Source of the DNA: Nanobdellota archaeon
GTDB lineage: Archaea > Nanobdellota > Nanobdellia > PEZQ01
DNA length: 54,657 nucleotides
Direction of reading: 5' to 3'
NCBI GenBank assembly: GCA_018220985.1
Contig: JAAOXS010000005.1
Coordinates: forward strand, 1 to 54,657
Position 1 is the stretch's first letter; every line of letters begins with the position of its first letter. Under the pieces are notes generated by a model. It searched no databases. It had not been told where the DNA came from and saw nothing but the letters and a program-made list of their open reading frames with translations. A program made the position numbers and the translations under genes. This document shows positions 4,577 to 54,477 of the stretch, in pieces.

Positions 4577-4604
4577 ATTAATATTAAATTCCATCTAACA
4601 CGTT

Positions 4605-12630: not shown

Positions 12631-14294
<1,664 letters not shown>

Positions 14295-29400: not shown

Positions 29401-29530
29401 TAGAGTTGGGGTGTAAGCACCAAGGTAACGAGGTGTTCAGCCCGCGACCACTAAGAGACCGAACCGCTAAAATTTTATGGAAGCAAAGAATATCTCACTT
29501 GTAAATTTCCAACTCGTATTGCACGATTCG
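26439..29530 (+). repeat. 23S processing stem (flanking inverted repeats)
   Basis: CGAGTCGTGCATACGAGTTGGA (26439-26460) pairs with TCCAACTCGTATTGCACGATTCG (29508-29530). Confidence 0.85.
26508..29470 (+). rRNA. rrl: Archaeal 23S rRNA
   Basis: GAAACATCTTAGTA, GGGATAACAGGC, CTCGATGTCGGCTC and sarcin-ricin loop AGTACGAGAGGAAC; ends approximate. Confidence 0.97.
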
Positions 29531-31014: not shown

Positions 31015-31524
31015 ATGAAAAAGGGAGGGTTTGCTAAAGTTAAGACTGTTAAAGTACCTGAAAAAAAAATTGTTTCAAACGAAGTTCGTACGGACGTTGA
31101 CCGTGTTGTTGACTTAGTTGGTGCAAGCCATAATAATAAATTATCTTTGAGAAAGATTAAGAATAAGTTGAATTTGCCTTTTGAAGTTGTTGAGAAGTGG
31201 GCGAAAATTCTTGATGAAAATAATGTTTTAGAATTGGTTTATCCTAAGAATCCTTTTATTGGAGCTTTTTTGAAAGTTAAAAAAGTGAAGTATGTTGAAA
31301 CAGGAAAAGAGGTTGGTAAAGTTTTGAAGAAAAAATTGGAGGGAAATAGTATTGGTAAAGAAAAAGAAGGTGAGTTTGAAAAAGGAAGTGGCGGAGATAA
31401 AAAAGAAAGCGGAGAACGAATTATTAGAAAAAGCAGAATTGAACGCGGAGAAAAACGTAGCGCAAAAAATCGTGTCGCCATTATTAAAAAAGGAAAAACT
31501 CGCAAAGTTAGAAAAACAAAATAA
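31015..31524 (+). CDS. Hypothetical protein with wHTH-like segment, overlapping the ATPase gene
   Basis: TDVDRVVDLV...LSLRKIKNKLNLPFEVVEKWAKILDE. Confidence 0.6.
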   Translation: MKKGGFAKVKTVKVPEKKIVSNEVRTDVDRVVDLVGASHNNKLSLRKIKNKLNLPFEVVEKWAKILDENNVLELVYPKNPFIGAFLKVKKVKYVETGKEVGKVLKKKLEGNSIGKEKEGEFEKGSGGDKKESGERIIRKSRIERGEKRSAKNRVAIIKKGKTRKVRKTK

Positions 31525-33010
31525 GTATTCATGGGAATGTGATGGCGTACCAGTTAGTGTAGTTATAGCAAAGCATGATAAGGAATTCGTACCAATTTAC
31601 GAGTTACGAACACCAAAAATTGGTGTTGGAACTCGCGCGCTTCTTAAAAACATTAAGGAAAACGTGATTGCCAGTTACGAGTTCGGTGACGCTGACATGC
31701 TTGACATTAGTAAGATGCGTAAGTTAAAAATTATTTTTTCAAAAAAAATTTTTGAAATAATTTCAACTGAAATTCCCACGATTAAGGATGAGAATAAAAA
31801 AATTTTATCAGGTATTCTCGTGCAAGAAATGCTCGGTCTTGGAATTATCGAGTTCTTAATTGATGATGCACAATTAGAGGAGATAGTTGTTAATAATGCT
31901 ACTGAAAACATTTGGGTTTACCATAAGTCTTTTGGTTGGTTGAAAACCAATGTTAAATTAACTGATGAGAATGAAATTTATAATTTCGCCCAAAAAATTG
32001 GTCGTGTTGTTGGTAAGGAAATAACCACTCTTAATCCTTTGATGGACGCGCATTTAGTTACTGGTGACCGTGTTAATGCTTCTTTATTTCCAATTTCCAC
32101 AAAGGGCGGGACGCTCACTATTAGAAAGTTTAGAAGACAGCCGTGGACTATTACTGATTTAATTGAGAAGGGCAGTCTTAGTTATGAGGTTGCAGCTTTT
32201 ATTTGGATTTGCATGGAGTACGAAATTTCTTTAATTGTTTCTGGTGGAACTGCAAGTGGTAAGACTTCTTTTCTCGGTTCAATTCTTCCTTTTATTCCTC
32301 CAACTCAAAGAGTTATATCAATTGAGGATACTCGTGAGATCCAATTACCCAAGTTTCTGCATTGGGTACCTTTAACAACTAGAACGCCTAACCCTGAAGG
32401 TAAGGGTGGTGTGACAATGCTGGACTTGCTTGTTAATTCTTTACGTATGCGTCCAGATAGAATTGTTGTTGGCGAGATTAGGCGTCAAAAGGAAGCGCAA
32501 GTCCTTTTTGAAGCAATGCATACAGGCCATAGTGTTTACGCTACTGTTCACGCTGATACGGCTGAGCAAACAACACGCAGGTTAACTTCGCCGCCAATTG
32601 ATTTGCCTGTTGAAGAAATTGAAACGCTTCCATTAATTATTGTTATGTATCGTCATAGGCGTAAGAAAGTAAGAAGGTTGTTTCAAGTTGCTGAGCTTGT
32701 TGGTTCCAGACAAGGTGAGGATGAAGTAAGTATTAATGAAATTTTTAAGTGGGATCCTATTGATGATATTATCAAATCTGAGAATAATAGTATTAGAATT
32801 GTTAATGAATTAAGATTGCATAGTGGCATGGATGAATCAGATTTGAAGCAGGAGATTAAGCGTCGTGTTGAAATTTTGCAATGGATTGTTTCAAATGATT
32901 TACGAACAGTTGATGAGGTTGGTAGAATTGTAAGCGAGTTCTATTATGATAAGGAGAAAGTTTACTCTCTTATAAAGAAGAAAGTTAAGCCTAGTGAATT
33001 ATTAAAATGA
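31352..33010 (+). CDS. Type IV pilus/secretion ATPase (CpaF/VirB11/FlaI family)
   Basis: GGTASGKT, SIEDTRE, LRMRPDRIVVGEIR, AMHTGH; GGAGG upstream of TTG. Confidence 0.95.
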   Translation: MVKKKKVSLKKEVAEIKKKAENELLEKAELNAEKNVAQKIVSPLLKKEKLAKLEKQNKYSWECDGVPVSVVIAKHDKEFVPIYELRTPKIGVGTRALLKNIKENVIASYEFGDADMLDISKMRKLKIIFSKKIFEIISTEIPTIKDENKKILSGILVQEMLGLGIIEFLIDDAQLEEIVVNNATENIWVYHKSFGWLKTNVKLTDENEIYNFAQKIGRVVGKEITTLNPLMDAHLVTGDRVNASLFPISTKGGTLTIRKFRRQPWTITDLIEKGSLSYEVAAFIWICMEYEISLIVSGGTASGKTSFLGSILPFIPPTQRVISIEDTREIQLPKFLHWVPLTTRTPNPEGKGGVTMLDLLVNSLRMRPDRIVVGEIRRQKEAQVLFEAMHTGHSVYATVHADTAEQTTRRLTSPPIDLPVEEIETLPLIIVMYRHRRKKVRRLFQVAELVGSRQGEDEVSINEIFKWDPIDDIIKSENNSIRIVNELRLHSGMDESDLKQEIKRRVEILQWIVSNDLRTVDEVGRIVSEFYYDKEKVYSLIKKKVKPSELLK

Positions 33011-33888
33011 AAACAGTGCCGTTATCATTAGCACCACCTCCCCTGCTTAAATTTTTAGCTCCTCAGTTTAAAGGTTTGGCGAGGATTTTATTGTCTTTTT
33101 TTCCGGGTTTGGAGCTTGAATTAAAGCAGGCGGGTATGCGTTTTTCAGCAGAGGAGTATATGAGTTATTTGTTTGTAGCTTTTATTTTTAATTTGTTCAC
33201 TTTCACGTTTTTATTTTATTTTATTTTTGTTGGTTTAATGCAGCCGCCTAACATTAATTTGTGGTTGGTTAGTAGTTTAGGAATTTTAATGTTCACGTTA
33301 TTCATGCAAGTTAATTATCCTAAGTACACTATTATGAAGCGCGCTAAAGAAATTGACAAGACTTTATTGTTCGCTTTGAGGAATTTGCAGATTCGTCTTA
33401 AGTCAGGTATTCCTTTATACAAAGCTATGAAAGGTGTTGGTAAGCAGGATTTTGGAATTGTTAGTCAGGAGTTTAAGAAAACAGTTAATGAAATTGAAGG
33501 TGGCGTGCCTCAAGTAACTGCAATTGAGAGAATGGCTTTTCGTAATCCGTCAAAATATTTTCAGAGGGTTGCTTGGCAGATAGCTAATGGTTTGAAAGCT
33601 GGCGCGTCTATTGAGAAGAGTATTGATTCCATTACCAAAAACTTGGCTAAAGATCAGTTAATAACAATTAAGAATTATGGTGCTAAATTGAATCCTCTTG
33701 CTATGATGTACATGATGGTTGCTGTTATTATTCCAACTCTTGGCGTGACTTTTCTAATCATTCTCGGCTCGTTTTTTGGTATGGGTATTGATGAAAACGT
33801 GTTTTATTTGATTGCTGGTTTTTTAGCTGTTTTCCAGTTCATGTTTATGGGCATTATTAAAACTAATCGTCCGGTGATAGAGTTATGA
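33007..33888 (+). CDS. TadC/TadB-like (T2SSF domain) pilus platform protein
   Basis: Follows the ATPase; LKSGIPLY.A...FG.VS.EF pattern and TM helices. Confidence 0.88.
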   Translation: MKTVPLSLAPPPLLKFLAPQFKGLARILLSFFPGLELELKQAGMRFSAEEYMSYLFVAFIFNLFTFTFLFYFIFVGLMQPPNINLWLVSSLGILMFTLFMQVNYPKYTIMKRAKEIDKTLLFALRNLQIRLKSGIPLYKAMKGVGKQDFGIVSQEFKKTVNEIEGGVPQVTAIERMAFRNPSKYFQRVAWQIANGLKAGASIEKSIDSITKNLAKDQLITIKNYGAKLNPLAMMYMMVAVIIPTLGVTFLIILGSFFGMGIDENVFYLIAGFLAVFQFMFMGIIKTNRPVIEL

Positions 33889-34868
33889 AAAATCGTTATA
33901 GTTTTTACGAAAAGGTAGGTAGAACTTTTCCGAGGGGCGTTAAAAAAAGTATTTGTTCTATGATGGTTTATGCTGATATTAAAGTTGATGAAGAAGCGTG
34001 GCTTGGTTTCACAACCGTTTTTACGAGTTTGCTTTTTCTCGCTGTTTCATTGCTTTCTTTTGTAATAACTCGTGATTTTTTAGTTTCTTTTTTGTCAGGT
34101 GTTGTTTTAAGTGGTTTTTTTGTTTTAGTTCCTCATTTACTTATTAGTTTAAAAAGTGATAAGAGGGTTGATTTTGTGGAGAAAGTTTTGCCCGATGCTT
34201 TGTTATTAATCGTTTCTAACATTAGGTCGGGTATTACTCCTGAGAAAGCTTTGGTTCTTAGTGCGAGGGACGAGTTTGGTATTCTTTCTGTTGAGATTAG
34301 GAGTGCGATGAAGCGCACTCTTGCTGGTGAGAATTTTGTTGAAGCTTTAAAACTTATCAGTAAGAATGTTAATTCTAAGGTTTTAAGGCGTGTTGTTAGT
34401 TTGTTAGTGGAGGGTGTGCGTTCTGGTGGTGAGATTGCTAAGTTGTTAGAGGAGTCTGCGTACAATATTCGTTCTAATCAGTTGATGAAGCGTGAGATTC
34501 GTTCAAGTGTTTTGATGTACATTATTTTTTTGTTTGCGGCTATTGGTTTTGCAGCGCCTATTCTTTATGGGATTAGTTCTTATTTAACAACTATTATGAG
34601 TGATTTGTTAGCGGGGATTGATATTCCTGAGGAAGTTTTGCGAACGAGTTTTATTAAATTGTCAAGTTCTTCGATTAGCCCTGAGTTCGTGAATTTTTTC
34701 GCTATTTTCAATTTATCTGTTAGTTGTTTGTTTGGTAGTATGATTATTGGCATGATTGAATCTGGCAGTGCTAAGAAAGGTTTGAAATTCATACTGCCAT
34801 TGTTAGTGTGCAGTCTTGGTTTGTATTTCTTACTACGAAGCGTTTTAAGCACTGCAATAGTTATATAA
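33885..34868 (+). CDS. TadC/TadB-like (T2SSF domain) pilus platform protein
   Basis: LPDALLLIVSNIRSG.TPE.AL...EFG.LS, GVRSGGE. Confidence 0.88.
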   Translation: MKNRYSFYEKVGRTFPRGVKKSICSMMVYADIKVDEEAWLGFTTVFTSLLFLAVSLLSFVITRDFLVSFLSGVVLSGFFVLVPHLLISLKSDKRVDFVEKVLPDALLLIVSNIRSGITPEKALVLSARDEFGILSVEIRSAMKRTLAGENFVEALKLISKNVNSKVLRRVVSLLVEGVRSGGEIAKLLEESAYNIRSNQLMKREIRSSVLMYIIFLFAAIGFAAPILYGISSYLTTIMSDLLAGIDIPEEVLRTSFIKLSSSSISPEFVNFFAIFNLSVSCLFGSMIIGMIESGSAKKGLKFILPLLVCSLGLYFLLRSVLSTAIVI

Positions 34869-36440
34869 TCATTTAAAGAACCTACCACCAATTTCCACCA
34901 GTCTTGTATAATCTTCTAAAGTGAGTAATCTTTCCATTTTAGGTTGTCCAACAAGTGATCCGCTAGTGTTTTGTTTTTTTTCTTTTTGAAAGTTCCAAAA
35001 AGTATTTTCAGGAACAAAATTTATTTCAAGGTTTTCTAATCTAACATTATCCCTAAATCCACGAGATTTTTTGTACAATTCATTACCCTCACAAATATTT
35101 TTATCTAGTTTTTCAGATAATTCCTGAAGATTTCCCGGAATTTCACTTGCTTCAGCTATAACAAAATATTTTTTATTATTTTCATCAGGATAATAACCAA
35201 AATTGCTAATATTACTAATTTTTTCTGATTCTATTAATTGTTCAAGAGCTATTTTAACATGTGCAGGGTATAAACGCTCAATATCAATGTTTCCTATTTT
35301 ACCATCCCATCTTCCAATAATCTCAAAACGAATAGGGTCTTTTCCAACAATTTTAATGATGTCGCCATTCAAATAATTATACAAACCTGCAACAGTAGTG
35401 CAAGCGAGACCATAGTTATCACCAATTTTCGCTTCAGTAATATGTTTAAGGTTATCTTGAAGAACATTAACATGGCTACCTTCTTTATGAACTTTTAATA
35501 ACAAGTCTTCATCTATAATTCCATAAATCAAGTTTTTCAAAAAACCAACATGTCCTTTTTTCTCACCTTGTTCACAACCAGGCATACCATTTAATTCACT
35601 GCTACCATATGCATTAGTAACAGGATATTCTCCTCCAAGATATTCAAATATTGTTGAAGCAAGAGGTCCAAAATCTTCACCACTAGAAATTACAGCTTCT
35701 AAATTATCAGTTATCAAATTCATTTTTCCTTTTTCTTGTATGAAATCAAGTAAATCCGCCATGAAAATTGGCACTCCTGCAAGCCCTGTTATCTTCTTGC
35801 CTTCAATATCTTTTAACAAAGCAGTATACCTTTTCTCATCATTTGCAATTTTTAAAGTACTTTCAGATGGTAAAAGAAGGCTTCCAATTCCTGGTTTTTT
35901 AATTGTGTGAGAAAGAGCAATTGATGAAATATAATCAATAGGCAATCCTCCTTTAAGTTCTGTTTCATTAATGGTAACTACAGTAAGTAATTTTCCAGAT
36001 AATAATTTTGGTTTCTTCATTGATAATTGAAGTTGAGTAGTTGCTAGTGTTAAATTGTTCAAATACCAATTATTAATTGGAAACATTTTTGGAACGTTTG
36101 TTGTACCTGATGTTCTAACCCAGCCAATAGGTTGTTGTGAAGAAAGAACATTAGGTGGTTCGCTCCAATTAGAGTTATTCAATCTTTTTTCAATTTCTTC
36201 AAAAAAAGGTACGTAATCCTCATAAGTTGTTAATGGGACTTTTTTAAAAAATTTATCAATTGTTTTAATATTGAAAAAATCATATTTTTTACCATAATCT
36301 GTTGAAGCATTGGCTTTCATTAGTTTTTGCAAAAATTTTTCCTGCGTTTCAAGAGGTTTGTCCCACCCATCGTTACCATATTTAAAAAGTTTTAGACATT
36401 TTAATGCACCATAAAATAAATAACTCTTAACAAAACCCAT
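34869..36440 (-). CDS. GH3-family acyl-acid amido synthetase
   Basis: TQEKFL..L...NASTDYGKKY.F, VPLTTYEDY, TSGTT..PKMFP, YGSSE, GLYNY..GDII, GR. Confidence 0.85.
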   Translation of the reverse strand: MGFVKSYLFYGALKCLKLFKYGNDGWDKPLETQEKFLQKLMKANASTDYGKKYDFFNIKTIDKFFKKVPLTTYEDYVPFFEEIEKRLNNSNWSEPPNVLSSQQPIGWVRTSGTTNVPKMFPINNWYLNNLTLATTQLQLSMKKPKLLSGKLLTVVTINETELKGGLPIDYISSIALSHTIKKPGIGSLLLPSESTLKIANDEKRYTALLKDIEGKKITGLAGVPIFMADLLDFIQEKGKMNLITDNLEAVISSGEDFGPLASTIFEYLGGEYPVTNAYGSSELNGMPGCEQGEKKGHVGFLKNLIYGIIDEDLLLKVHKEGSHVNVLQDNLKHITEAKIGDNYGLACTTVAGLYNYLNGDIIKIVGKDPIRFEIIGRWDGKIGNIDIERLYPAHVKIALEQLIESEKISNISNFGYYPDENNKKYFVIAEASEIPGNLQELSEKLDKNICEGNELYKKSRGFRDNVRLENLEINFVPENTFWNFQKEKKQNTSGSLVGQPKMERLLTLEDYTRLVEIGGRFFK

Positions 36441-36484
36441 ATATATTCTATAATATATACTTTACACAATATATATGTTTTGTA

Positions 36485-37171
36485 TTAATATACAAAAGCT
36501 AAAAACATGAATAGCAAGTTTATCAAAAATGGAATTAACGCTAAGGTTAATGGAACTTCAGGTTTTATCATAAATATAATAATAACAAAAATAAAGGAAA
36601 CAATCATTAAAATTATCGATACGTAAAGAAATTGAATTTTACGAATGTATTTCTTATCAGATAATTTTATAAAAATTTTTCTAAAATTATACATTGCTAA
36701 TAAAGTATAAGAAAAAAGAATACCTATATATGATATTTTAAATAATGGACTTAAATCCACAGCCCATCCAACACCATGTCTTTCCAACATAAGACTATTT
36801 GGTAGTATTAATAAAATAATTATTAACAAAGTTGGTATTGCCATGTAAATAAATTTTATATAATCTTTCTTATACATACCTTTCAAAGAATAAGCTGTAA
36901 AAAAAAGAAACATACTTGAACTAGTTGTAAATATATAACTAATCTTAGATAAATAAGTAGCTATTTCTAAATCTAAGATTGAAGACCTTAAACCTAAAAG
37001 AATTGCATAAACTAAAAAAGAGAGCAGAAAAAGTATGAAAAATTTTGAAGATGTATTTAGTTTTTTCTTTTTTCTTACGAAAACAAAAATAAATGTCAAT
37101 GTTAATAAAATACTCAAGGTGGGTAAAGTGAAATTAATTAATTGAATTAAATCTACAGTCATAACATTCAT
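36485..37171 (-). CDS. Stand-alone 7TM sensor-like membrane protein (HisKA_7TM-like)
   Basis: About 7 hydrophobic segments with a loop (ERHGVGWAVDLSP) and no cytoplasmic output domain. Confidence 0.55.
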   Translation of the reverse strand: MNVMTVDLIQLINFTLPTLSILLTLTFIFVFVRKKKKLNTSSKFFILFLLSFLVYAILLGLRSSILDLEIATYLSKISYIFTTSSSMFLFFTAYSLKGMYKKDYIKFIYMAIPTLLIIILLILPNSLMLERHGVGWAVDLSPLFKISYIGILFSYTLLAMYNFRKIFIKLSDKKYIRKIQFLYVSIILMIVSFIFVIIIFMIKPEVPLTLALIPFLINLLFMFLAFVY

Positions 37172-37253
37172 ATTACTTATTTTTTAATATATATCTTTTG
37201 TTATATAAAAATAAAAACTAATTTAATCATGTGTTGTTAATAATAGTTTTGTT

Positions 37254-37892
37254 ATGAATGTTGAAACAGGAATTCGTTGGTTAGATGACCTTCTTGGTGG
37301 CGGAGTTAAACAAAATTCAAGCGTTCTAGTTCGCGGAATTTACGGAACTGGAAAAACAACAATTTGTTCAAAATTTATTAACGAAGGATTAAAAAAAAAA
37401 GAGGATTGCCTGTTCATAAACACTGAAACAAAACATTCGCAACTAAAATTAAAAAACAATGCTAAATTAACAATAATCACCACAAAAAAAGACGTGAAAG
37501 AAAATAATGTGATAACTACAACTAACAAAAATTTATTAAAAAAAATAAAAAAAACAATTTACGAACACGAGAATATAACAAGAATAGTTTTTGACACTGT
37601 AAACCCCATATTAAGATTTAACAATATAAAAAGCATGACTAATAAACTTGAAGATGCGATTGCATCATTAGGAAAAGAAAATACTAAAATAATAACATTA
37701 GATACAACTAAATTAACTCGTGAAAAAAGCAATATTTGCAATGATCCATTCCAAACAGTAGTTGAACTATCTAAAGAAAAAAACAAGCACTTATGCAATA
37801 TTCTTCAATCAGAGAAAACAGAAATGGTAGGTAAAGTTGTAAACATAGATGAAGATAGTGTTACGCGCGAAGTAAGAAGTTTCTTTGAATGA
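37254..37892 (+). CDS. KaiC-like/RAD55 RecA-superfamily ATPase (divergent)
   Basis: TGIRWLDDLLGGG, GIYGTGKT, RIVFDT. Confidence 0.85.
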   Translation: MNVETGIRWLDDLLGGGVKQNSSVLVRGIYGTGKTTICSKFINEGLKKKEDCLFINTETKHSQLKLKNNAKLTIITTKKDVKENNVITTTNKNLLKKIKKTIYEHENITRIVFDTVNPILRFNNIKSMTNKLEDAIASLGKENTKIITLDTTKLTREKSNICNDPFQTVVELSKEKNKHLCNILQSEKTEMVGKVVNIDEDSVTREVRSFFE

Positions 37893-37895
37893 ATT

Positions 37896-38642
37896 TCAAA
37901 ACCATTTCTCGTCTGGAAATATTTTAATCCCTTTTTTAGTGATAGTGTAAGGGTGTATCATTTTAGTGTGGTCTGATTGTCTCATCTTAACTATTTCAAT
38001 TCCTCGTGTGAATTCAGCTCCTTTTTTTTGTTTTCGGTGAAGTGCGATAACAGTGTCAGCTAAGAATTCTATTCCCGCCACGCTAAGAGTGCTAGTGTCA
38101 CCATGCAATCCCATTTCTGAAACAATAATTGATGAGCCTGGAGAGTTACGGAGAACGCTGAACAATTTGTAAAACACGTTTTTAACTTTAAAAATGTCTT
38201 TAATATAGTATTCTATTATTGTTGCTGAATCAATAACAAGTCTTGAAAACCTTTTTTTGCGAAGTAATGGTTCAACTATTTTTAACAAAATTTGCGGATA
38301 GTTAGGATTAATTGATTCAATAATTAGTAAGTTCTTTTTCTCTAAGGATTCTATGTCTAATCCAATTGTTTTAGCGTATTTTCGAATGTCTTCAGCGTTG
38401 TTTTGAGTTGTTATATACAAGCCAGGTTCGCCGTATTTTATCGCACCTTCGTAAAGAAATTGGAGTGCGAATATTGTTTTTCCAGCTCCCGTGTTTCCTG
38501 AAAGCATTACAACACTTCCTGGAACAAATCCCCCATGAGTTACTTCATCCATTCCTGGAACGCCCGTTTTAATTCTTTCACTATTCGTTTTTTTTTCAGG
38601 TTTTGCAATTTTGTTTTCAATTTTTTCTTCAACACTGTTCAT
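37896..38642 (-). CDS. KaiC-like ATPase
   Basis: TGVPGMDE..GG, GNTGAGKT, RLVIDS, EFLADTVI, IVKMR. Confidence 0.9.
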   Translation of the reverse strand: MNSVEEKIENKIAKPEKKTNSERIKTGVPGMDEVTHGGFVPGSVVMLSGNTGAGKTIFALQFLYEGAIKYGEPGLYITTQNNAEDIRKYAKTIGLDIESLEKKNLLIIESINPNYPQILLKIVEPLLRKKRFSRLVIDSATIIEYYIKDIFKVKNVFYKLFSVLRNSPGSSIIVSEMGLHGDTSTLSVAGIEFLADTVIALHRKQKKGAEFTRGIEIVKMRQSDHTKMIHPYTITKKGIKIFPDEKWF

Positions 38643-39331
38643 TTTAGTTCAACTCCTTTTCGAGTTATCTTATACGGTACGAATTCTAATAATTTTTCTG
38701 ATTCGGTTTCAAAACCCCTAATTTTAAGGAATTTTCCATCACTTTTTTTTTCAAGTTCGATTGTTGAATCAGTGAGTGATTCAAGAAGTACGTAAATTTT
38801 TTCGTCGTGCATTCCTTGTTCTACAACAAGTAATAATACATCGTTTTTTTCTCTGAATTTGCTTATCACATCTTCTAAAAAGTTTGCTACATCATCAATA
38901 GAGTTGTGAATTATAAGATTTGAAACAGAGTCAATAACGCACCTTAAAGGCTTGTTCAAGTATGCTTTGAATATTTCTGAAAGTGCTACGCTAATATCTG
39001 ATAAATTGCTTTTACCAACTCTAATAATTCCGGATTCTTTCTTTTTTGATGTTGAAGTATATGCGTCAACTATTTTTAAGCCAGTGAATTTTTTTCGAAA
39101 AGTTAATAATTTTTTTTTAATGTTCTCCCCTAAATTGTTAGTCGTAACGTAAACTCCTATTTCATTCTCGTCAGTTGCAATGAAATGTGATGAGAACAAG
39201 CTTTTACCCATTCGAGGCGAGCCTATTAAGAGAACTGATGAGCCTCTTAAAAAGCCACCACTTAGCAATTTATTAAACGCGGGAATTCCAGTGCTAGCTC
39301 GCGTTCTTTTTTTAACAATTTTTTTTTTCAT
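38639..39331 (-). CDS. KaiC-like ATPase (degenerate Walker A)
   Basis: STGIPAFNKLLSGG, GSPRMGKS, VIDSVS. Confidence 0.85.
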   Translation of the reverse strand: MKKKIVKKRTRASTGIPAFNKLLSGGFLRGSSVLLIGSPRMGKSLFSSHFIATDENEIGVYVTTNNLGENIKKKLLTFRKKFTGLKIVDAYTSTSKKKESGIIRVGKSNLSDISVALSEIFKAYLNKPLRCVIDSVSNLIIHNSIDDVANFLEDVISKFREKNDVLLLVVEQGMHDEKIYVLLESLTDSTIELEKKSDGKFLKIRGFETESEKLLEFVPYKITRKGVELK

Positions 39332-40152
39332 ATTTTTCTAACAATGATTCCTTTATTTGTTATTTCAAAAGGGTATATTTTATTACTATGGTCTGTTCTC
39401 CGCATTTTTCTAACCATCAGTGCTCTTTTGAATTTAGCGGCGATTCCAATAAATTGAAGTGAGATTATTCCATCAACCATGAATTCTATAACTCCAAAAC
39501 GGCTTAATCCTTTACTTTCTTCAAGTATTTCAGCTGTAAAAAGAGTTACGATATCCATGTCTTTAAGGATTTTGTAAACTGAAAAAAGTTTTCTTCGCGT
39601 TTCAAAAACGTCATCAAAAAAGAGTGAGAACATGCTTGTTGAATCAATAACAACGCGTTTAGCATTTATTTCTTCAATTTTTTGTTTTACGAGATAAGGT
39701 AGTTGGCGAACGTTTCCAGGGTCTATTTCTATTATTGATAATTTTTTTTCATCCATTAGTTTATGAAAATCCCATCCGAAACTCGTAAGCATATCATCCG
39801 CAATGTCGTCAGCTCTCTGCTCTGTTGTTATGTAAACCCCGTTCTCACCATGGTCAATAATTCCTTTGTAAAGGAATTGGGCGGAAACTATTGTTTTTGA
39901 ACTGCCTGTTTTTCCAGTTACGAGAACAACAGAGTGAGGTAAGAATCCACCACCCATTAATTCATCTAATCCTGGAATTCCAGATTTAATTCTACGAGAT
40001 AATTCCACTCTACGATTTTTCACGTTTTGTTTAATTGGTTTTTTTTGTTTTTTCTCAATTTTTTTAGGTTTAACTTTTTTTGAGTTAACAAGTTTAACAA
40101 CTTCTTCAACTTCTTTTTTCTTATTCTCTTTGCTTAAAAAATTTAAACGCAT
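39328..40152 (-). CDS. KaiC-like ATPase
   Basis: SGIPGLDELMGGG, GKTGSSKT, RVVIDS, EFMVDGII, VRKMRRT. Confidence 0.9.
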   Translation of the reverse strand: MRLNFLSKENKKKEVEEVVKLVNSKKVKPKKIEKKQKKPIKQNVKNRRVELSRRIKSGIPGLDELMGGGFLPHSVVLVTGKTGSSKTIVSAQFLYKGIIDHGENGVYITTEQRADDIADDMLTSFGWDFHKLMDEKKLSIIEIDPGNVRQLPYLVKQKIEEINAKRVVIDSTSMFSLFFDDVFETRRKLFSVYKILKDMDIVTLFTAEILEESKGLSRFGVIEFMVDGIISLQFIGIAAKFKRALMVRKMRRTDHSNKIYPFEITNKGIIVRKI

Positions 40153-40161
40153 AAATTTAAT

Positions 40162-43100
40162 TCACTCCACTCTTCTTATTTGTCTTCTTTCTTTTTTACT
40201 CTTTCCTTTTTTTGTTCCTAATTTTTCTTTTAAATCTTTAATTCTTGATTGTATTCCAACAAGGTTTCCTTCATATTTTCTCATTAAATTCATGTAAGTT
40301 TCTTCATCAATTTTTCTTTCAAAGTATTTTTTTTGAGTTGCGTTAAGCATTTCATTCAAGTGCGATTCTTTTGAATTCCAATGCTTTAATAATGATTTGT
40401 TAATGAGTTTTGAACCAATAACTTTGTAAAAAACGAATAAGGTTCCTCCAAATAAAATCATGATTATCAGTATTTGCAATGGTGACAGCGTAAAACCGGC
40501 TTTTTCAATGAATAATGTTGTGAGAACTGTTCCAGTATTCCCATCAGGATCTATTATTGTAATAAGCGCACCCCAAGTCCCCGAGTTGTTAAATAATATC
40601 GTGTACGCCCCTTCATAAGTTCCCTCTTCTGTTTCGTAAAGATATATTAAATCATTATTTGGGGATTTTATAGTGGCGTTCGCAAAATTAACATTTGAAC
40701 CGTCAGGATAGTTTGCAGCTATTACGAAAAGAATTGTTTCACCTTGAATAAAAGTTGTTTGAACTGGTTTTAATAATTTTGGCGTAATCGTTAAAGGCAG
40801 TACTCCAAGAGTTGTGAATTCACCGCCACCCTTAAGAGCTCCGAATAATTCTTTTCTCACTTCCACCATTAAATTAAAATCCCCTAAACTTGCGTCACTT
40901 GGAACTTCATAAATTCCTTCATATATTCCTGTTTGCTTTTCTAAAAGTTGTATTTTTACGCCTTCAGAAGTTATCGCTGTAACATTTGCACCACTAACTA
41001 TTTCATCCTCTTTTAAAACTTCAATGCTAATCATTATTTCCTGTCCCCTGGTAAAAATTGAACCACGAATAGGGCTGTTAAATTTAATGTCAAAGTAAGA
41101 GAATTTTGAGGGCAGGGATATTTCTCTTTCAATAGTTTGTGAAATATTGTTTCCAGCTAAGTCCTGAGCATTGACTTGAATATTCCATTTCCCAAACGGG
41201 TCTGCGAAAGTTGTTTCGTAAACAAAAACGAAACTTCCTTCAGCGTTTGTTTTGTTCGTATTTGAAACTTGCCAGTTTGAAGTTTCACTATTTAAAATAA
41301 AATTTACAACATAGTTAGCACGCGGGATTCCTTGCAGTGTTGTAAGCGTTCCAAAAATTATTATGTTATCTCCAATTTCGTAAGATATTTCATCAGTTAA
41401 TAATTCAATATTAAGTTTTTTTGAAATGTTAAAAACCAAGTTTTTTCTTCCAATACTTCCATTCTGTTCAGCTGAAATTAGTAATGAGTATTCTCCTAAA
41501 AATCCTGTAGGTGTTAAAATACTTCCATAATAGTATCCTGTTGAAGTATTCTCAGTTAAAGAGTATTCTGTTGATGAGAATCCTGGAAGAAATTTCACGT
41601 CAGCATCGCTGACGGGTTCATTATCTTTATTCACAAGTATTTTAAAAGTTAAATTATCATTAACTGAGCAAATAGTGTTATTATCCGGTTCGTAAACAAT
41701 TATTTGTAATCCTAAACAATCATCAGGGCAGGATGTTGAATTCTCACCTGGAGCTTCGCAAATATTATTAGGGCAACAGTTCGCCGTTATTGCACAAGAG
41801 CAAGAGTAATCAATGCATTGGAATGAAAGGCATGTGCCGCAATTACTTTCACACACTCCACAATCAGCAGGGCAAATGCATTGGTTTTCGCTTGACTCGC
41901 ATACATCATTCCCACAAACAGCTGTACAGTCAGCAGGGCAAATATAAGAATTCTCACCTGGAGCTTCACACACACCATTACCACAACTTGCTGTACAGTC
42001 ATTATCTAAATTAAAGTTGCAAAGAGAGCAGCATAGAGCATCATCATCAACGCAGTAATTTGTTTGTGTGAAAGTGCAATTAGCAGTATCATTTCCAGGA
42101 TTAGTGCAAGTGTCAGTTGTGCAATAATCACTATCATCACAATCATTGTTTGAAAAGCATTCTATTTTAGACTCTGGCGTGGTTTGATATACAATCAAAG
42201 GATTTGATAAGGATTGTCCGATTGCAGTTACGTCTGTTGCACCATTTATTATCATAAAATAATAACTTATAAAATTTGGAGTGTTAGTGGTTACGTTCCA
42301 ACCGTAACGATCGCTTCCATCGAAAATGCTCCAAGACCCACTAACATCATTTTGGTTTAGTACAATCCCATAACCATTATTGTTAGCGTCATCGTGAACT
42401 CCGCGGTAATCATAACCATTTGAACTGCCTGTTGTTGTTGAATCGTCAGTTTCGCTTGAAGCATCGCCTCCTGGCGTTCCTAATCCCAGTATTCTATAAT
42501 TTGCAGCGTTTGGGGAGGAGTATTGTATTTTAATAAAACCACTTAAGTAGTATATGCTAATGTTTTCGTAAACAGTGTATGTTGCGTCAGTTCCCGTTAC
42601 GCGCATTATTTTTCTTACAGCGCCATTCTTTACTAGTTCACTGCTCCAAGCAAGGCTTGCGTGAGTATTATCATCATTCACGTATAATCCTTCTATTCTC
42701 GAGTTTGATACAATATTATTTTTTGATTGGTCTTGGTTTTCTTCAGATTTTATTACGAAATCAATTATTCCTGTGTAAGCATCAGCATTTCCAAGTGCTA
42801 TTTTTAGTTTTGAGTTCTCTATAATGTTATTTCCAGGAGTTATTGAACCCCATGTTAAACTGTAAGAAGGTGATATTTTAGTGTTAGCTTCTGTGTCAAA
42901 ATAAATGTTGTATGTTCTGTTAGTATTAACATCTGTTGTTCCATTAATAACCCAAATTAATTCACCGTACCCATCACCAACAATTCCAACATCATCAAAT
43001 TGGGAGGGTATTTCAACTCTATTTTCTATTATCCTTATTGAATTTTCATCAAAATTTTGGGAGTCGTTTAGTTGGTCTAATAAATTTGTAAAATTTATTA

Positions 43101-43254
43101 ATAGTTCTACTGGCATGTTCTCTCTTACATAATTTCCTGAACTGATGTTAATAGGTAAACGGTATTGCCAAGTGTCATTCCACCAGTCATTTGCTGCTAA
43201 AACACTAGCTGGTAATACAAATAAAATAAGTAGTAAGCTATTTTTTTTTCCCAC
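40162..43254 (-). CDS. Large surface protein with Cys-rich repeats, Ig-like domains, TM and SHOCT-like tail
   Basis: Signal peptide, WWNDTWQYR.PI N-terminus, CGNGVCE..EN...CP.DC repeats, C-terminal TM followed by KKYFERKIDEETY. Confidence 0.8.
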   Translation of the reverse strand: MGKKNSLLLILFVLPASVLAANDWWNDTWQYRLPINISSGNYVRENMPVELLINFTNLLDQLNDSQNFDENSIRIIENRVEIPSQFDDVGIVGDGYGELIWVINGTTDVNTNRTYNIYFDTEANTKISPSYSLTWGSITPGNNIIENSKLKIALGNADAYTGIIDFVIKSEENQDQSKNNIVSNSRIEGLYVNDDNTHASLAWSSELVKNGAVRKIMRVTGTDATYTVYENISIYYLSGFIKIQYSSPNAANYRILGLGTPGGDASSETDDSTTTGSSNGYDYRGVHDDANNNGYGIVLNQNDVSGSWSIFDGSDRYGWNVTTNTPNFISYYFMIINGATDVTAIGQSLSNPLIVYQTTPESKIECFSNNDCDDSDYCTTDTCTNPGNDTANCTFTQTNYCVDDDALCCSLCNFNLDNDCTASCGNGVCEAPGENSYICPADCTAVCGNDVCESSENQCICPADCGVCESNCGTCLSFQCIDYSCSCAITANCCPNNICEAPGENSTSCPDDCLGLQIIVYEPDNNTICSVNDNLTFKILVNKDNEPVSDADVKFLPGFSSTEYSLTENTSTGYYYGSILTPTGFLGEYSLLISAEQNGSIGRKNLVFNISKKLNIELLTDEISYEIGDNIIIFGTLTTLQGIPRANYVVNFILNSETSNWQVSNTNKTNAEGSFVFVYETTFADPFGKWNIQVNAQDLAGNNISQTIEREISLPSKFSYFDIKFNSPIRGSIFTRGQEIMISIEVLKEDEIVSGANVTAITSEGVKIQLLEKQTGIYEGIYEVPSDASLGDFNLMVEVRKELFGALKGGGEFTTLGVLPLTITPKLLKPVQTTFIQGETILFVIAANYPDGSNVNFANATIKSPNNDLIYLYETEEGTYEGAYTILFNNSGTWGALITIIDPDGNTGTVLTTLFIEKAGFTLSPLQILIIMILFGGTLFVFYKVIGSKLINKSLLKHWNSKESHLNEMLNATQKKYFERKIDEETYMNLMRKYEGNLVGIQSRIKDLKEKLGTKKGKSKKERRQIRRVE

Positions 43255-44488
43255 CTTTTTTCCCCCCCTTATTCTTTTTTATTCCTAACTTTTTTTTGAG
43301 TTCTTTGACACTGGTTTGAACGCTTACGAGTTTCGCTTCGTGTTTTCTCATTAATTCCATGTATGTTTCTTCATCGATTACTCTGTCAAAGTATTTTTTT
43401 TGAGTTATGTCTTGCATTCTTTTCAAGTCTTTTTGTTTTGCAGTGTAATGTTTAAGAAGTGTTATTCGCAAAAATTTTGTTCCACCAAAAAAGAAGAAGA
43501 ATACTGAAATGATTATGAAAACAATGGTTGCTAGTATTACTAATGGATGTGTGATAATTGATTGTGTTAGTATTAAAATGTTTTTTTGGATTTCGCCTTT
43601 GTTTCCGTATTCGTCAACAACTGTGAAATGAGCATTCCAAGTGCCTAAAAAATTGTTTGGAATTTTGTAAGAAATGTTGAAATAATCATTAACAGTGTTC
43701 ATTGCTAATTTCCCTTCTGGTGTGTTAATTGTCACGTTCACGTTTAATGCAAGTGTTTTGTCAGGGTAGTGTGATTTTATTTTAAATAAAATTGTTGCGC
43801 CGGGTTTGAAAACGTTTTTTTCAGGTTCAATAATTGTTACATTAATTTTTGCGGGGTTAACATTCAATTTTAGGAATGCTCCTCCTTTTCTAATGCCTTG
43901 AGCTAAGTTTTTTTCAGCGGTGATTCTGATGAGTTTATAATTGTCCTGCGAGTCATATTTTAAATCATAGTTTACAGTGTAAACGCCATTATTTACTTCT
44001 ATAAGGTTTAATTCTTCTTCGTCAATTAACGCGGTTACTTTTGCTCCTGCAATTTTTTCAACACTTCTGAAAACTTCAACGCTAATAGTTATTGTTTCAC
44101 CGCGAGTGTATGTTAGCGTTTGAACTGGTGAATTAAAGTTAACTCCGAAGTATGCGTTCTCACTTGTTAATATTGCAGTTATGTTTTTTTGAGTGGTTAT
44201 GTTTTGTGTTTTAAAATTAATAATCCAATTTCCTGACTGGTCGCTTACTGTGGATTTAAAAATGTATGAATTGTTTTTTTCAAAAAATAGTTGTTTTACG
44301 TAATGCCAATCATCATCAGTTGTTATGATTTCAATTTCCGCGCTTCCTAAAAAATTTGTTTCAGGTGTTATTGTAAAATAATCTCCTAAAATGAATTGTG
44401 TTCCCCCTGTTGAATTCGTAATTGTGAATTCTACAGCGTTAACCGCGCTTATCATGAAGAGCATTGCTAAAAAAACTGTTTTTCGCAT
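43238..44488 (-). CDS. Surface protein paralogous to the C-terminal half of the neighbouring gene
   Basis: Shared F.SP...TRG..I.ISVEV domain and TM + KKYFDRVIDEETY tail. Confidence 0.8.
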   Translation of the reverse strand: MRKTVFLAMLFMISAVNAVEFTITNSTGGTQFILGDYFTITPETNFLGSAEIEIITTDDDWHYVKQLFFEKNNSYIFKSTVSDQSGNWIINFKTQNITTQKNITAILTSENAYFGVNFNSPVQTLTYTRGETITISVEVFRSVEKIAGAKVTALIDEEELNLIEVNNGVYTVNYDLKYDSQDNYKLIRITAEKNLAQGIRKGGAFLKLNVNPAKINVTIIEPEKNVFKPGATILFKIKSHYPDKTLALNVNVTINTPEGKLAMNTVNDYFNISYKIPNNFLGTWNAHFTVVDEYGNKGEIQKNILILTQSIITHPLVILATIVFIIISVFFFFFGGTKFLRITLLKHYTAKQKDLKRMQDITQKKYFDRVIDEETYMELMRKHEAKLVSVQTSVKELKKKLGIKKNKGGKKGGKKK

Positions 44489-44573
44489 ATTACATTATTG
44501 GAATTCCTTGATTTTTAGAGTTTTCTAAAAAAAGAAAAAAGGTTTAACAATAATAAAAAACAATTATTCATGT

Positions 44574-46208
44574 ATGGTGCGGGGGCAAGTATCTATTGAG
44601 TATTTTTTTCTTGTGAGCATTATCATGTTAGTCGGTATTGGCGTGGTTTTATCTTATATGAGAATAACTGAAAGCACTATTTCTTCATTTCAAAGTGAGG
44701 CTTCAGTGCAAAAATTGAATGAGGAGATTACACGAGTATTTTACATGAGATATCCTGCTACGCGAACTGTGCGTTTAGAAATTCCTAATAACGTGATTAG
44801 TAATAGAACTTTTATTGCTAATAATACTATTCAAATTAGTTATTATGATAATGGAATTGTTGACGTTTTTGAAAGTCTTGATTTTAATGTTTCAGGATAC
44901 ATCCCTAACAAACCTGGAGTTTATTGGCTTAAATTGTTCTCAGATATTAATAACACGCTTCAAGTTATGGTCATAGATTTTGATGTTTATCCTGATAATA
45001 TTGCGCTTTACTTACCTAAGTTCGGTGAAAAAGAGTATAATATTACTTTAACCAATACGGGTAATCAAACAATTAGTGTTAGTGCGTTAACTGAGAATCT
45101 TGATTACTTAGTTGATCTTGACGCGTCCACAAGGTATATTGATACTTCACTTAATTTAGGAAGCATTGTTAAAGGTGGTCATAAAACTTTTGAAATTCGT
45201 GTTAGTGCAAATAAAGGCGTTGGAAATTATTATGGAACTATTTTTCTCAAAAGCGATAATGTTGAAATCAATATTCCTATTGCAGTTGGTATTCGTAATC
45301 GAATTTTTCCAGTGAATACAACAATTATTCCTCTGGACAGTAATCAAGTTGATGTTTTGAAAGCTTATGGTTTTGCTTATGATTTATTAAGTCAAGAAAT
45401 TCCTGTTGGTTGGGTTATGAACAATATTACGATTAACACAACTGAGTTAGGAAGTTATGATTATGAGGGTAGTGTTTTCGTAATTGATAGTTTGGATGTT
45501 GATTGGATCATTTCAGAAGCTGCTTCTTGGGGTGTTACAATTCATCATTTAAACCAATCTCTTAATGGTGATTTCGTAACTTGGCTTGCTTTCGCTCCGA
45601 GAGTTGCTGTTCATTCAAGTGGGAAGTATTGGGTTGTCACTAGTACGCTTAACATGTCTGGAATACCCTATGATTGGGTTGATGGTAATACCATTCTAAA
45701 CAGTGGTTTAGCAGGTTATGATGTTTTACTAGTAGGGCATTATGATTTTGAGTTTAATTCTCCGAATCCTGAAGGTGAAACTAGTAAAATAGAAGAGTTC
45801 GTTGTTAATGGAGGTTATTTGCATGCGGAGTGCGTTTCAATAACGAGCTATGAGAAATATCAGAATTCTACTGGTGTTACTTCTTCAAGAAGCATTTTTG
45901 GAGGGGATTATTTGGAAATGTTCGAGTCTGAGAATCCTTTAACTCAAACATGGGGTGTACCTAAGGATATTGGCGGTACTGTTTCTGGTTTGAACGTGTC
46001 TAATGCTAATGTTACTGTGTTAAGTGATGATAATTATGGTTTCCATAAGTTCGTGTATTCCTCACATGGTGAGGGCTATATTTCTTATTTTGCAGGTCAC
46101 TTAGGTGATAGTGTTGACATAAATGTTTCACGTATGCGATTGCTTAATAACGTGGTTTTGTTCACTTCCGCTGAAAAAGGTAAAACCGGCCCGTTACCAC
46201 AAATTTAA
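44574..46208 (+). CDS. Class III signal peptide (pilin-like) adhesin/minor pilin
   Basis: MVRG/QVSIEY followed by a hydrophobic helix and a large beta-rich extracellular part. Confidence 0.8.
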   Translation: MVRGQVSIEYFFLVSIIMLVGIGVVLSYMRITESTISSFQSEASVQKLNEEITRVFYMRYPATRTVRLEIPNNVISNRTFIANNTIQISYYDNGIVDVFESLDFNVSGYIPNKPGVYWLKLFSDINNTLQVMVIDFDVYPDNIALYLPKFGEKEYNITLTNTGNQTISVSALTENLDYLVDLDASTRYIDTSLNLGSIVKGGHKTFEIRVSANKGVGNYYGTIFLKSDNVEINIPIAVGIRNRIFPVNTTIIPLDSNQVDVLKAYGFAYDLLSQEIPVGWVMNNITINTTELGSYDYEGSVFVIDSLDVDWIISEAASWGVTIHHLNQSLNGDFVTWLAFAPRVAVHSSGKYWVVTSTLNMSGIPYDWVDGNTILNSGLAGYDVLLVGHYDFEFNSPNPEGETSKIEEFVVNGGYLHAECVSITSYEKYQNSTGVTSSRSIFGGDYLEMFESENPLTQTWGVPKDIGGTVSGLNVSNANVTVLSDDNYGFHKFVYSSHGEGYISYFAGHLGDSVDINVSRMRLLNNVVLFTSAEKGKTGPLPQI

Positions 46209-49836: not shown

Positions 49837-49935
49837 ATTCCCTCAAAAGGTATTACTATTTCGTTTCTTAAATAAGTAACGTCTACAGTGCATATTTTCA
49901 CGAAAACAGTTAATAACTAGTATTGTTTTTAGTTA

Positions 49936-50478
49936 GTGTTCATGATAGAGATCGCTATTCATGGTAGGGGAGGTCAAGGTGCTGTTACTGCTTCGCAAAT
50001 TCTTGCCATGGCTTTTGAAGAGCAAGGAATTCGAGCTCAGGCTTTTCCACAGTTTGGCACTGAAAGAACAGGCAGTCCTGTTAAAAGTTTTGTGCGCGCT
50101 TCGCGTAGGGAAATAAAAATTAAAGCACCGGTAACTCTTGCTGATTACTCTATTGTAATTGATCCCACTTTAATTAATACTGTTAACATTGTTGATGCGA
50201 CCAAGCCTCGTGGAACAATTGTTGTTAATACAAAAAATGCTTTAAGTAATATTTCAAAAAAGCATAGGGTTATTTGCATTGACGTTAATGAAATTGCTAA
50301 AAGCATTTTTGCGCGTGGCGCTAATGTTGGTTTGTTAGGCGCTTTTGTCGCTTCCACTCGCGTGTTGCAGATTAAGAGTTTAACTGCTGCGATTAGCACG
50401 CGTTTTCCAAGGTTTGTTAAAGAAAACCAGCAAGTTGCTGAGAGGGTTTACGAAATTGTTCGTAAAGAATTAGTATGA
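49936..50478 (+). CDS. porC: Pyruvate/2-oxoacid:ferredoxin oxidoreductase gamma subunit
   Basis: HGRGGQGAVTA, FPQFGTERTGSP. Confidence 0.93.
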   Translation: MFMIEIAIHGRGGQGAVTASQILAMAFEEQGIRAQAFPQFGTERTGSPVKSFVRASRREIKIKAPVTLADYSIVIDPTLINTVNIVDATKPRGTIVVNTKNALSNISKKHRVICIDVNEIAKSIFARGANVGLLGAFVASTRVLQIKSLTAAISTRFPRFVKENQQVAERVYEIVRKELV

Positions 50479-52802: not shown

Positions 52803-52838
52803 CCTTTAAAAACAGGTTTCTTTATTCTATTTTGTAAT

Positions 52839-54288: not shown

Positions 54289-54388
54289 ACATTTATAAGT
54301 TTGGTTTCAAACCAATACATATTGGAGTCAAATTAGTTCGTAGTCATTTTAGAAAAACTTTAAAAAACAACTAAAACTCTAATCAATT

Positions 54389-54463: not shown

Positions 54464-54477
54464 TCACCATAATTCAT

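Follow-up and report, generated by a model that had tools for sequence, protein, structure and literature searches.

The stretch of DNA analysed here, hereafter the window, is a complete 54.7-kb contig (54,657 nucleotides) of a Nanobdellota archaeon, taken from a 661-kb assembly of 24 contigs, which is 83.6% complete. Its segment from 31015 to 46208 carries, side by side, the genes of a pilus motor, a gene for an amido synthetase of the GH3 family, a gene for a stand-alone protein with seven transmembrane helices (7TM), four genes for single-domain KaiC-like ATPases and, following these, genes for surface and pilin-like proteins. A first-pass annotation had reported the pilus ATPase and TadC genes, GH3, the 7TM protein and the four KaiC-like ATPases, and all of them proved to be real genes, located where it had placed them. 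The features of the locus, in the order of their coordinates, are the following.

31015-31524, plus strand: conserved small gene, 169 aa, upstream of the pilus ATPase; no Pfam family
31352-33010, plus strand: type IV pilus / archaellum-type secretion ATPase (T2SSE, VirB11-like); PF00437, 1.2e-34
33007-33888, plus strand: TadC-like platform protein 1 (TadC1; T2SSF, about 4 transmembrane helices); PF00482, 2e-16
33885-34868, plus strand: TadC-like platform protein 2 (TadC2; T2SSF, about 5 transmembrane helices); PF00482, 3.8e-14
34869-36440, minus strand: divergent GH3/OlsH-type acyl-acid amido synthetase, 523 aa, of the ANL adenylating superfamily; PF03321 at 2.7e-27, with GH3_M and GH3_C
36427-36488, minus strand: AT-rich imperfect inverted repeat (hairpin) with 27-nt arms, 78% complementary, at the 44-bp spacer between the 7TM and GH3 genes
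36485-37171, minus strand: stand-alone 7TM protein with a HisKA_7TM-like fold, 228 aa, ending right after the last membrane helix
37254-37892, plus strand: KaiC-A, orphan and C-terminally divergent, 212 aa; PF06745, 3.6e-17
37896-38642, minus strand: KaiC-B, single-domain KaiC-like ATPase, 5.8e-53; catalytic Glu replaced (TQN)
38639-39331, minus strand: KaiC-C, DUF835/DUF7504-like (iKaiC-like) paralogue, KaiC 2.2e-22; catalytic Glu lost (TNN)
39328-40152, minus strand: KaiC-D, best conserved of the four, 4.9e-60; Walker A GKTGSSKT, catalytic Glu kept
40162-43254, minus strand: giant surface protein of 1030 aa, immediately preceding the KaiC-D gene, which has the same orientation
43238-44488, minus strand: secreted surface protein of 416 aa, at the head of the minus-strand row, with an N-terminal signal-like sequence
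44574-46208, plus strand: large pilin-like protein of 544 aa, starting with a class III (type IV pilin) signal

Conservation was evaluated in two samples, one of 40 relatives and one of 401 genomes of the phylum, the latter including the genome under study; genome sizes among relatives of the same class range from 0.5 to 1.8 Mb. From 19 relatives, 21 distinct loci containing the ATPase-TadC1-TadC2 series were collected and mapped with the window proteins by phmmer (E <= 1e-3). Throughout, absence means that a sequence was not found in the assemblies searched, which are incomplete. The order to which the archaeon belongs is represented in our collection by two genomes, its own included, and the age of the genes described below as lineage-specific can therefore not be dated.

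All the parts expected of an archaeal type IV pilus were found: a secretion ATPase, a TadC platform, a pilin with a class III signal and, elsewhere in the genome, a prepilin peptidase (Peptidase_A24, 45.8 bits, on contig 23 and not in the window). The ATPase scores 317 bits with the FlaI model, under its 550-bit equivalog cut-off, and its orthologues in the related loci are matched at E values from 1e-138 to 1e-217; two more T2SSE-family matches sit on other contigs of the assembly. Orthologues of TadC1 are present in all related loci, and TadC2 is matched in 30 of the 40 relatives at E <= 1e-10. The small gene at the head of the series overlaps the TTG start called for the ATPase, and a homologue of it lies immediately upstream of the ATPase in 11 of the 21 related loci. 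The N-terminus of the 544-aa protein, MVRGQVSIEYFFLV (split as MVRGQ and VSIEYFFLV...), is the sole class III pilin signal between 29.4 and 47 kb. As to the surface proteins, the larger one features a signal peptide, a Cys-rich stretch, Ig/MG2-like repeats, a C-terminal transmembrane helix and a basic tail, while the 416-aa protein gives a weak match to the Ig-like family Big_3_2 (2.4e-4, under the cut-off).

The four KaiC-like proteins are single domains of 212-274 aa, with domain scores of 63-203 bits against a cut-off of 26.6, and they are the only KaiC matches over the cut-off in the whole assembly (661 kb, 83.6% complete). Three of them close a minus-strand row, made up in order by the 416-aa secreted protein, the 1030-aa surface protein, KaiC-D, KaiC-C and KaiC-B, the last three genes overlapping successively by 4 bp. 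KaiC-A converges on this row with a gap of 3 bp, and diverges from the 7TM gene across an 82-bp spacer. KaiC-D is basic over its N-terminal 50 residues, matches KaiC structures at 4e-63 and finds counterparts in 29 of the 40 relatives, the best being 51% identical, in a genome of another family (G012). KaiC-C also scores with DUF7504 (5.6e-10, over the cut-off) and with DUF835 (2.3e-5), and is the sole DUF835-like stretch of the genome (25.6 bits, under the cut-off). KaiC-A matches only positions 1-169 of the 231 of the KaiC model; its closest relatives are 35% identical over 56% of the sequence, and no orthologue was found in the 21 related loci.

Two of these ATPases had been described in the first-pass annotation as carrying degenerate Walker A motifs. 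The motif fits GxxxxGK[ST] in KaiC-A (GIYGTGKT), KaiC-B (GNTGAGKT) and KaiC-C (GSPRMGKS), and only KaiC-D deviates from it, its second Gly being replaced; in our alignment all four keep the Walker A Lys as well as the Walker B Asp. The actual degeneracy lies at the position of the catalytic Glu, aligned to the "..FEE.." of KaiC, which reads TEQ in KaiC-D and TET in KaiC-A, but TQN in KaiC-B and TNN in KaiC-C.

The association of KaiC-like genes with the pilus motor extends to other genomes. They were found inside 6 of the 21 orthologous loci: they follow TadC2 immediately in L051 and L052, both of a single genus; in L062 they converge on TadC2, in L048 one gene intervenes, and in L057 and L044/L056 they lie some 6 kb upstream. 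They are accompanied there by homologues of the 544-aa pilin-like protein and by runs of small proteins with one transmembrane helix; in L051, L052, L057 and L049 these homologues are 719-746 aa long. In G012 the B, C and D paralogue types lie side by side, adjoining a homologue of the 1030-aa surface protein (2e-37, locus L038); orthologue types of KaiC-B were seen in L038 and L051. KaiC-family ATPases are associated with archaeal type IV pilus loci according to the survey by Makarova, Koonin and Albers (2016, PMC4858521), and a DPANN example, Nanohaloarchaeota clusters with two kaiC copies, is given in PMC9563170. The tie between archaeal KaiC-like ATPases and type IV pili, on which the first-pass annotation had relied, thus holds beside the orthologous operon as well, and the linkage is a conserved and already published layout.

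As separate observations on the same related loci, three of them, all from one family (L058:8555-9397, L059:2707-3555 and L060:6307-7242), encode a CBS-pair protein of 280-311 aa near surface or pilin genes downstream of TadC2, roughly in the place taken by KaiC in other relatives; it may be an alternative regulator. A protein with eight transmembrane helices beside the KaiC pair of L048 was considered as a sensor and discarded, being a UbiA prenyltransferase.

The window locus shares with the archaeal pilus-KaiC loci (PMC4858521, PMC9563170) a VirB11-type ATPase and TadC located by KaiC-like, pilin-like and surface proteins. It differs from them in having four KaiC paralogues together, two of which without the catalytic Glu, and from the related pilus loci in the insertion of GH3, 7TM and KaiC-A, seen in none of them. 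A second term of comparison is the archaellum, in which the KaiC-like ArlH binds and regulates the motor ATPase ArlI and the catalytic Glu of ArlH is needed for autophosphorylation and motility (bioRxiv 10.1101/2021.03.19.436134). In both cases a T2SSE-type ATPase and a polytopic platform protein have a KaiC-like ATPase of the single-domain type encoded beside them. However, the ArlH model scores 29-57 bits on the four window proteins against a cut-off of 215, so that they are not ArlH orthologues; the window locus contains no archaellins, ArlF, ArlG, ArlC, ArlD or ArlE, and a set of paralogues replaces the one ArlH. The cyanobacterial clock protein is still more distant: that KaiC has two tandem domains, about 500 aa, and works with KaiA/KaiB, whereas the window proteins are single domains, on which the circ_KaiC models give 17-138 bits against a cut-off of 546.

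The 7TM protein was confirmed to be kinase-less, as had been noted in the first-pass annotation: it stops after the seventh helix (TM7) and lacks a cytoplasmic output domain (kinase, GGDEF/EAL, DUF835 or other), a form that exists elsewhere, too. Its ESM Atlas model, with a predicted TM-score (pTM) of 0.77, matches HisKA_7TM domains with TM-scores of 0.78-0.85 over 210-220 residues; the structure matches fall in 8 clusters whose aligned part is PF16927, many of them multi-domain. Assignment to HisKA_7TM is thus suggested by the modelled structure. The topology is predicted from the sequence to be N-out/C-in, with three basic cytoplasmic loops, and the basic loops are conserved in the family. 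A word-indexed search found no relatives, while an exhaustive one retrieved 5 among 1.84 billion representatives (61-30% identity, 137-363 aa), none long enough to hold an output domain of the size found in fusions. Each is a singleton cluster, and four come from contigs of at most 7 kb (1.5-7 kb). Scans for the loci of these relatives with P0054 (metagenome and genome collections) and P0056 (metagenome) returned no locus, and a profile of the family gave no match, even at E 10, in any of the fetched loci. The 40 relatives yielded only four stretches similar to the 7TM protein (E about 2-4e-3), with internal stop codons; by Pfam, the HisKA_7TM family occurs in one of the 40, where one of the two matches is a histidine kinase on another contig.

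Across the phylum sample, 26 of the 401 genomes contain a HisKA_7TM match, which exceeds the cut-off in 13 of them. Ten multi-domain HisKA_7TM proteins of the phylum were scanned: three are histidine kinases, and seven feature the order HisKA_7TM-DUF835-TrkA_N-TrkA_C, DUF835 following directly after TM7. Galperin et al. (2018, PMC5847659) list DUF835 under the name "iKaiC", for a KaiC-like domain that has been inactivated. When the DUF835 parts of five fusions were compared with the set of KaiC-C orthologues, hhalign gave a probability of 85.9% (E 5e-6, 132 columns). ESM Atlas lists one further archaeal HisKA_7TM+DUF835 cluster, from another phylum. Fusions and window locus have in common a 7TM sensor-type fold joined with a KaiC-superfamily domain, KaiC-C being DUF835-like. 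In the window, unlike in the fusions, the parts are separate genes, RCK domains and an adjacent K+ channel are missing, and KaiC-C keeps the P-loop, which is lost in the fused DUF835 domains; moreover, none of the fetched stretches shows a fusion beside pilus genes.

The fusions deserve a description of their own. They are 629-772 aa long and occur in seven genomes (L140:5715-7787, L141:5978-7867, L142:5613-7931, L143:6475-8463, L144:6697-8682, L156:5634-7547 and L157:3531-5612). In four of four tested loci the adjoining gene encodes an RCK-type K+ channel (Ion_trans_2 + TrkA_N + TrkA_C), and the fusion looks like a 7TM-gated regulator of a potassium channel. Our literature searches found no description of the HisKA_7TM-DUF835-RCK architecture.

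The GH3 protein contains the three domains of its family, N, M and C, with 96.2, 29.9 and 36.6 bits, each against a Pfam cut-off of 23.6, and is encoded by a single-copy gene. Its motifs, TSGTTNVPK, YGSSE, YNYLNGD and GQPK, are intact when aligned with 10 archaeal and 8 other members of the family, and correspond to the nucleotide motifs of GH3/ANL enzymes, (S/T)SG(T/S)..PK, xxSE, YxxxGD and a C-terminal GQxK lysine. It is nonetheless very divergent, the closest relative among 5.8 billion proteins being 28% identical. All its named hits are Bacteroidota proteins of the "GH3 auxin-responsive promoter family"; plant GH3 structures match it at 1e-10, and the OlsH model (NCBIfam NF052613) aligns to residues 28-504, with 66.3 bits against an equivalog cut-off of 620. 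A pattern scan of a collection of genome contigs found no close relatives. Family members were found in 18 of the 401 genomes of the phylum sample, the window genome among them. A tree was built with 35 sequences, the window protein, 14 of the 15 other archaeal ones (all but a 321-aa fragment from L090) and 20 of 50 database matches: the 14 archaeal proteins form one group (SH-aLRT 95), while the window GH3 falls outside it, next to the Bacteroidota-type set, on an end branch of 2.04, a placement of a kind that the program flags as unsure.

OlsH is presented in PMC12493201 as the first characterised bacterial GH3: it is an N-acyl-ornithine synthase that depends on ATP and has the alpha/beta hydrolase OlsI as its partner, and planctomycete olsH and olsI lie in one operon. 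Conserved nucleotide-binding motifs are reported there for OlsH/GH3, and other GH3 homologues are expected by its authors to make other N-acyl amino acids. The window protein has the same three-domain architecture and ANL motifs as OlsH, the GH3-like lyso-ornithine-lipid synthetase of Singulisphaera acidiphila (PMC12493201), and plant GH3 (PDB 4epm, 6avh, 5kod, 5ech), but is at most 28% identical to any protein found, and its gene adjoins those of 7TM and TadC2 in place of an OlsI alpha/beta-hydrolase O-acyltransferase. By analogy with OlsH, the window GH3 is most likely an active ligase that uses ATP to couple an amino acid or amine to a carboxylic acid, the latter probably a fatty acid. In the first-pass annotation it had been suggested as the enzyme making or modifying a signal; nothing found connects it to signalling, and that it should synthesize a signal sensed at this locus is unsupported and appears highly improbable.

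The neighbourhoods of archaeal GH3 genes were inspected for recurrent 7TM or KaiC partners. In the 15 other archaeal loci neighbours are mixed: patatin plus an enolase-superfamily protein (2 loci), DUF2817 (2), alpha/beta hydrolase, ZIP transporter, AI-2E transporter, RelA/SpoT, SET, radical SAM and others. KaiC lies 1.5 kb away in one of the 15 (L091), a pilus operon 3 kb away in another (L100), and HisKA_7TM neighbours were found in none; a weak "KaiA" match beside GH3 in L101 turned out to be SRP54 and was dropped. In Flavobacteriaceae a divergent gene of 264-285 aa lies directly upstream of GH3 in all 16 loci inspected of 80 fetched (L158-L237), and it belongs to the uncharacterised family DUF2797 in the three tested. 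No DUF2797 was found in the window genome. Literature searches on GH3 or amido synthetases in DPANN or other archaea returned no relevant description, and those on DUF835 / HisKA_7TM and archaeal GH3 no GH3-7TM-KaiC combination.

Some features of these neighbourhoods are of interest beyond the window. Acyl- or lipid-type neighbours were noted for main-clade GH3 genes in L089, L090, L091, L093, L098 and L102: patatin in L089 and L090, an alpha/beta hydrolase in L091, where the hydrolase-GH3 couple is an OlsH/OlsI-like pair and a weak match to a FeeM-like N-acyl amino acid synthase lies nearby, and a GDSL lipase two genes off in L102. The DUF2817 proteins found beside archaeal GH3 are amidase-like. 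Taken together, the neighbours of the main clade hint at acyl-amino-acid or lipid chemistry in archaea without lipid synthesis. In bacteria, the conserved GH3-DUF2797 pair might define the pathway of the enzyme.

GH3, 7TM and KaiC-A are lineage-specific additions, lying outside the conserved system, because they are absent from the 21 related loci; GH3 relatives are also missing from all 40 related genomes. The junction with the motor is tight, the stop codon of TadC2 abutting that of the convergent GH3 gene with zero spacer. The 7TM gene lies upstream of GH3, on the same strand and 44 bp apart. The predicted RNA hairpin of this spacer (-18.6 kcal/mol, z -2.8) reaches from the stop codon of 7TM into the first codons of GH3, whose AUG is paired, and 3 of 200 shuffled sequences fold as well; the sequence is very AT-rich, which calls for caution. 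Judged from its position and folding, it could serve as a terminator or in translational control, and could separate the expression of 7TM and GH3 as well as couple it. A scan for bacterial-type promoters and terminators returned fewer sites than shuffled sequences, its model not being applicable to archaea. The three genes have a low guanine-cytosine (GC) content at third codon positions (GC3), 0.170 in GH3, the lowest of the window, 0.179 in 7TM and 0.207 in KaiC-A, against a window mean of 0.250 (sd 0.048).

The whole is probably a locus for a type IV (adhesion) pilus in an archaeon of the DPANN type with a small genome; it is of a known kind, with lineage-specific additions. The secretion ATPase and the split TadC platform would form one part of its conserved core, the pilin-like protein, the large surface proteins and the entire KaiC-like set of the genome the other. 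From the observed gene content, conservation pattern, domain fusions and motif status we infer the contacts and the chemistry that follow. By analogy with ArlH on ArlI, the KaiC proteins may bind the pilus ATPase as an oligomer, gating pilus assembly through ATP binding and autophosphorylation; KaiC-D, and perhaps KaiC-A, would be the active subunits, KaiC-B and KaiC-C Glu-less, non-hydrolysing ATP-binding partners. Joint production of D, C and B is suggested by the overlap of their reading frames. A membrane-level cue might be fed into the KaiC set by the 7TM protein, which would then be a membrane input module, a split form of the HisKA_7TM-iKaiC fusions of the phylum; this we put forward tentatively, as a possibility short of an even chance. 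When DPANN-type symbionts choose to attach to a host is an open question, for which pili with KaiC-like ATPases are leading candidates. As the whole KaiC repertoire of a 0.66-Mb genome lies by one pilus motor, the locus offers a compact case for KaiC control of a pilus other than the archaellum. The new lead is the path from 7TM to KaiC, narrower than the circuit first proposed and, since HisKA_7TM and inactivated KaiC are fused in the phylum, testable here in split form.

A number of observations argue in the opposite direction. Fifteen of the 21 orthologous pilus loci have no KaiC within the fetched stretch. The Pfam match of the 7TM protein to PF16927 (3.4e-5) reaches 24.2 bits, or 23.3 in the genome scan, under a cut-off of 28.6. 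The four stand-alone 7TM genes with wide flanks have no KaiC neighbour, but DHH, AI-2E, NUDIX, CYTH and RadB; a KaiC-A-like neighbour in G306 (L134) was rejected, being Rad51/RadB. A separate KaiC gene within 1.5 kb was found at none of the 26 other PF16927 loci. Of five genomes with a KaiC-C orthologue that were checked, four have no HisKA_7TM at all, so that KaiC-C does not need a 7TM partner, and KaiC-A, which faces the 7TM gene across the divergent promoter region, shows no similarity to DUF835. Part of the link between 7TM and KaiC suggested by the first-pass annotation is thus indirectly supported, by the seven fusions to DUF835 among ten proteins and by the DUF835-like nature of KaiC-C; recurrence of the two as neighbours is not. 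As to the additions, the GC3 of all three genes stays within 2 sd, the codon usage of GH3 is typical (Kullback-Leibler divergence, KL, 0.09) and no convincing flanking direct repeats or signs of mobile elements were found around 33.5-39 kb; the three genes are old residents or slow arrivals rather than a fresh island.

In the circuit of the first-pass annotation, spelled out here in more detail, GH3 would make or inactivate a small acyl-amino-acid signal, 7TM would sense it, the KaiC proteins would relay it, and the pilus ATPase would respond, with control of attachment to the host. In its most far-reaching form, 7TM and GH3 would be co-transcribed, and a mixed oligomer of active and Glu-less KaiC-like proteins would gate the ATPase. 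The circuit would then amount to a self-contained chemical signalling system for host attachment, and to the first signalling role of a prokaryotic GH3. The contiguity of the genes, 7TM and GH3 being on one strand, the spacer common to 7TM and KaiC-A, the existence of 7TM-iKaiC fusions, the intact GH3 motifs and the two archaeal GH3 operons near KaiC (L091) or a pilus operon (L100) are in its favour. Yet these two cases in 15 loci are, by a rough estimate, about what chance would give in genomes of some 1000 genes, and none of the 15 has a HisKA_7TM neighbour; Flavobacteriaceae GH3 proteins, which include the best-scoring matches of the window GH3, pair with DUF2797 and not with a membrane sensor; and the product of the sole prokaryotic GH3 to have been characterised is a membrane lipid and not a signal (PMC12493201). 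The annotation had itself named the absence of GH3 and 7TM from orthologous pilus-KaiC loci as speaking against it, and this is largely what was found, both being missing from all 21. The circuit as a whole is not supported, and we regard it as very improbable: the tie between GH3 and 7TM would rest on gene order, the 44-bp gap and the common strand.

The same gene order would fit a membrane-lipid module unrelated to the pilus, merely adjoining the KaiC genes, in which GH3 ligates scavenged fatty acids to an amino acid, giving an OlsH-like N-acyl amino acid or aminolipid, and 7TM, as its partner in the membrane, delivers the substrate, handles the product or provides an anchor. The OlsH precedent (PMC12493201), the near-full-length match of its model and the lipid-type neighbours of GH3 in the phylum (L089, L090, L091, L102) would agree with this. 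However, the match is far below the OlsH cut-off (66 bits against 620), an OlsI-like hydrolase is missing from the adjacent genes, the fold of 7TM is that of a family of sensor domains and not of a known lipid enzyme or transporter, and such aminolipids are stated in PMC12493201 to be absent from archaea; moreover, the window GH3 falls outside the clade of the 14 other phylum proteins, so that the neighbours of the latter say little about it. We consider such a module unlikely, to about the same degree as plain juxtaposition in a compact genome, in which GH3, 7TM and KaiC-A, the latter perhaps a decaying duplicate, would be unrelated sporadic or fast-evolving genes and only the pilus-KaiC core a system. 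All three are indeed near-orphans, as seen from their identities, the long GH3 branch and the five 7TM relatives, none recurs in related loci, convergent genes here abut with gaps of only 0-3 bp, which makes adjacency cheap, and the hairpin between 7TM and GH3 could end the 7TM transcript. Against mere juxtaposition, a HisKA_7TM module would fall beside the only KaiC cluster of the genome by chance with a probability estimated at well under 1% (given one gene among about 700), 7TM and KaiC-type domains are also fused in the phylum, and conservation of the GH3 motifs and of the cytoplasmic loops of 7TM argues against decay. Whatever its role at the pilus locus, GH3 is notable in itself, being an archaeal and very divergent representative of a family in which only one prokaryotic enzyme has been characterised.

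The locus was also considered as a defence system, which was rejected, as a PADLOC scan gave weak P-loop-level matches only (E >= 2e-4).

Elsewhere in the window, whose GC content is about 0.32, lie genes for archaeal 16S and 23S rRNA and for an archaeal RNase P RNA. The two rRNA genes are unlinked, 12 kb with intervening protein genes separating 16S (12737-14228) from 23S (26506-29473). Rfam tRNA matches at 2195-2310 (116 nt) and 52839-52979 (141 nt), not called by ARAGORN, probably represent tRNA genes with introns. Two UbiA-type prenyltransferases, a GT4 glycosyltransferase and a hexapeptide transferase, encoded at 2502-6319 with a GC content of 0.25-0.28, make up a membrane or cell-surface biosynthesis cluster, whose composition is extreme, like that of the 7TM gene. 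At the other end, genes for acetyl-CoA synthetase and three subunits of pyruvate:ferredoxin oxidoreductase, within 47872-53752, reach 0.38-0.41, as does an integrase-family fragment (184 aa) adjoining tRNA-Arg (54388-54465); the block at 47872-53752 may be of foreign origin.

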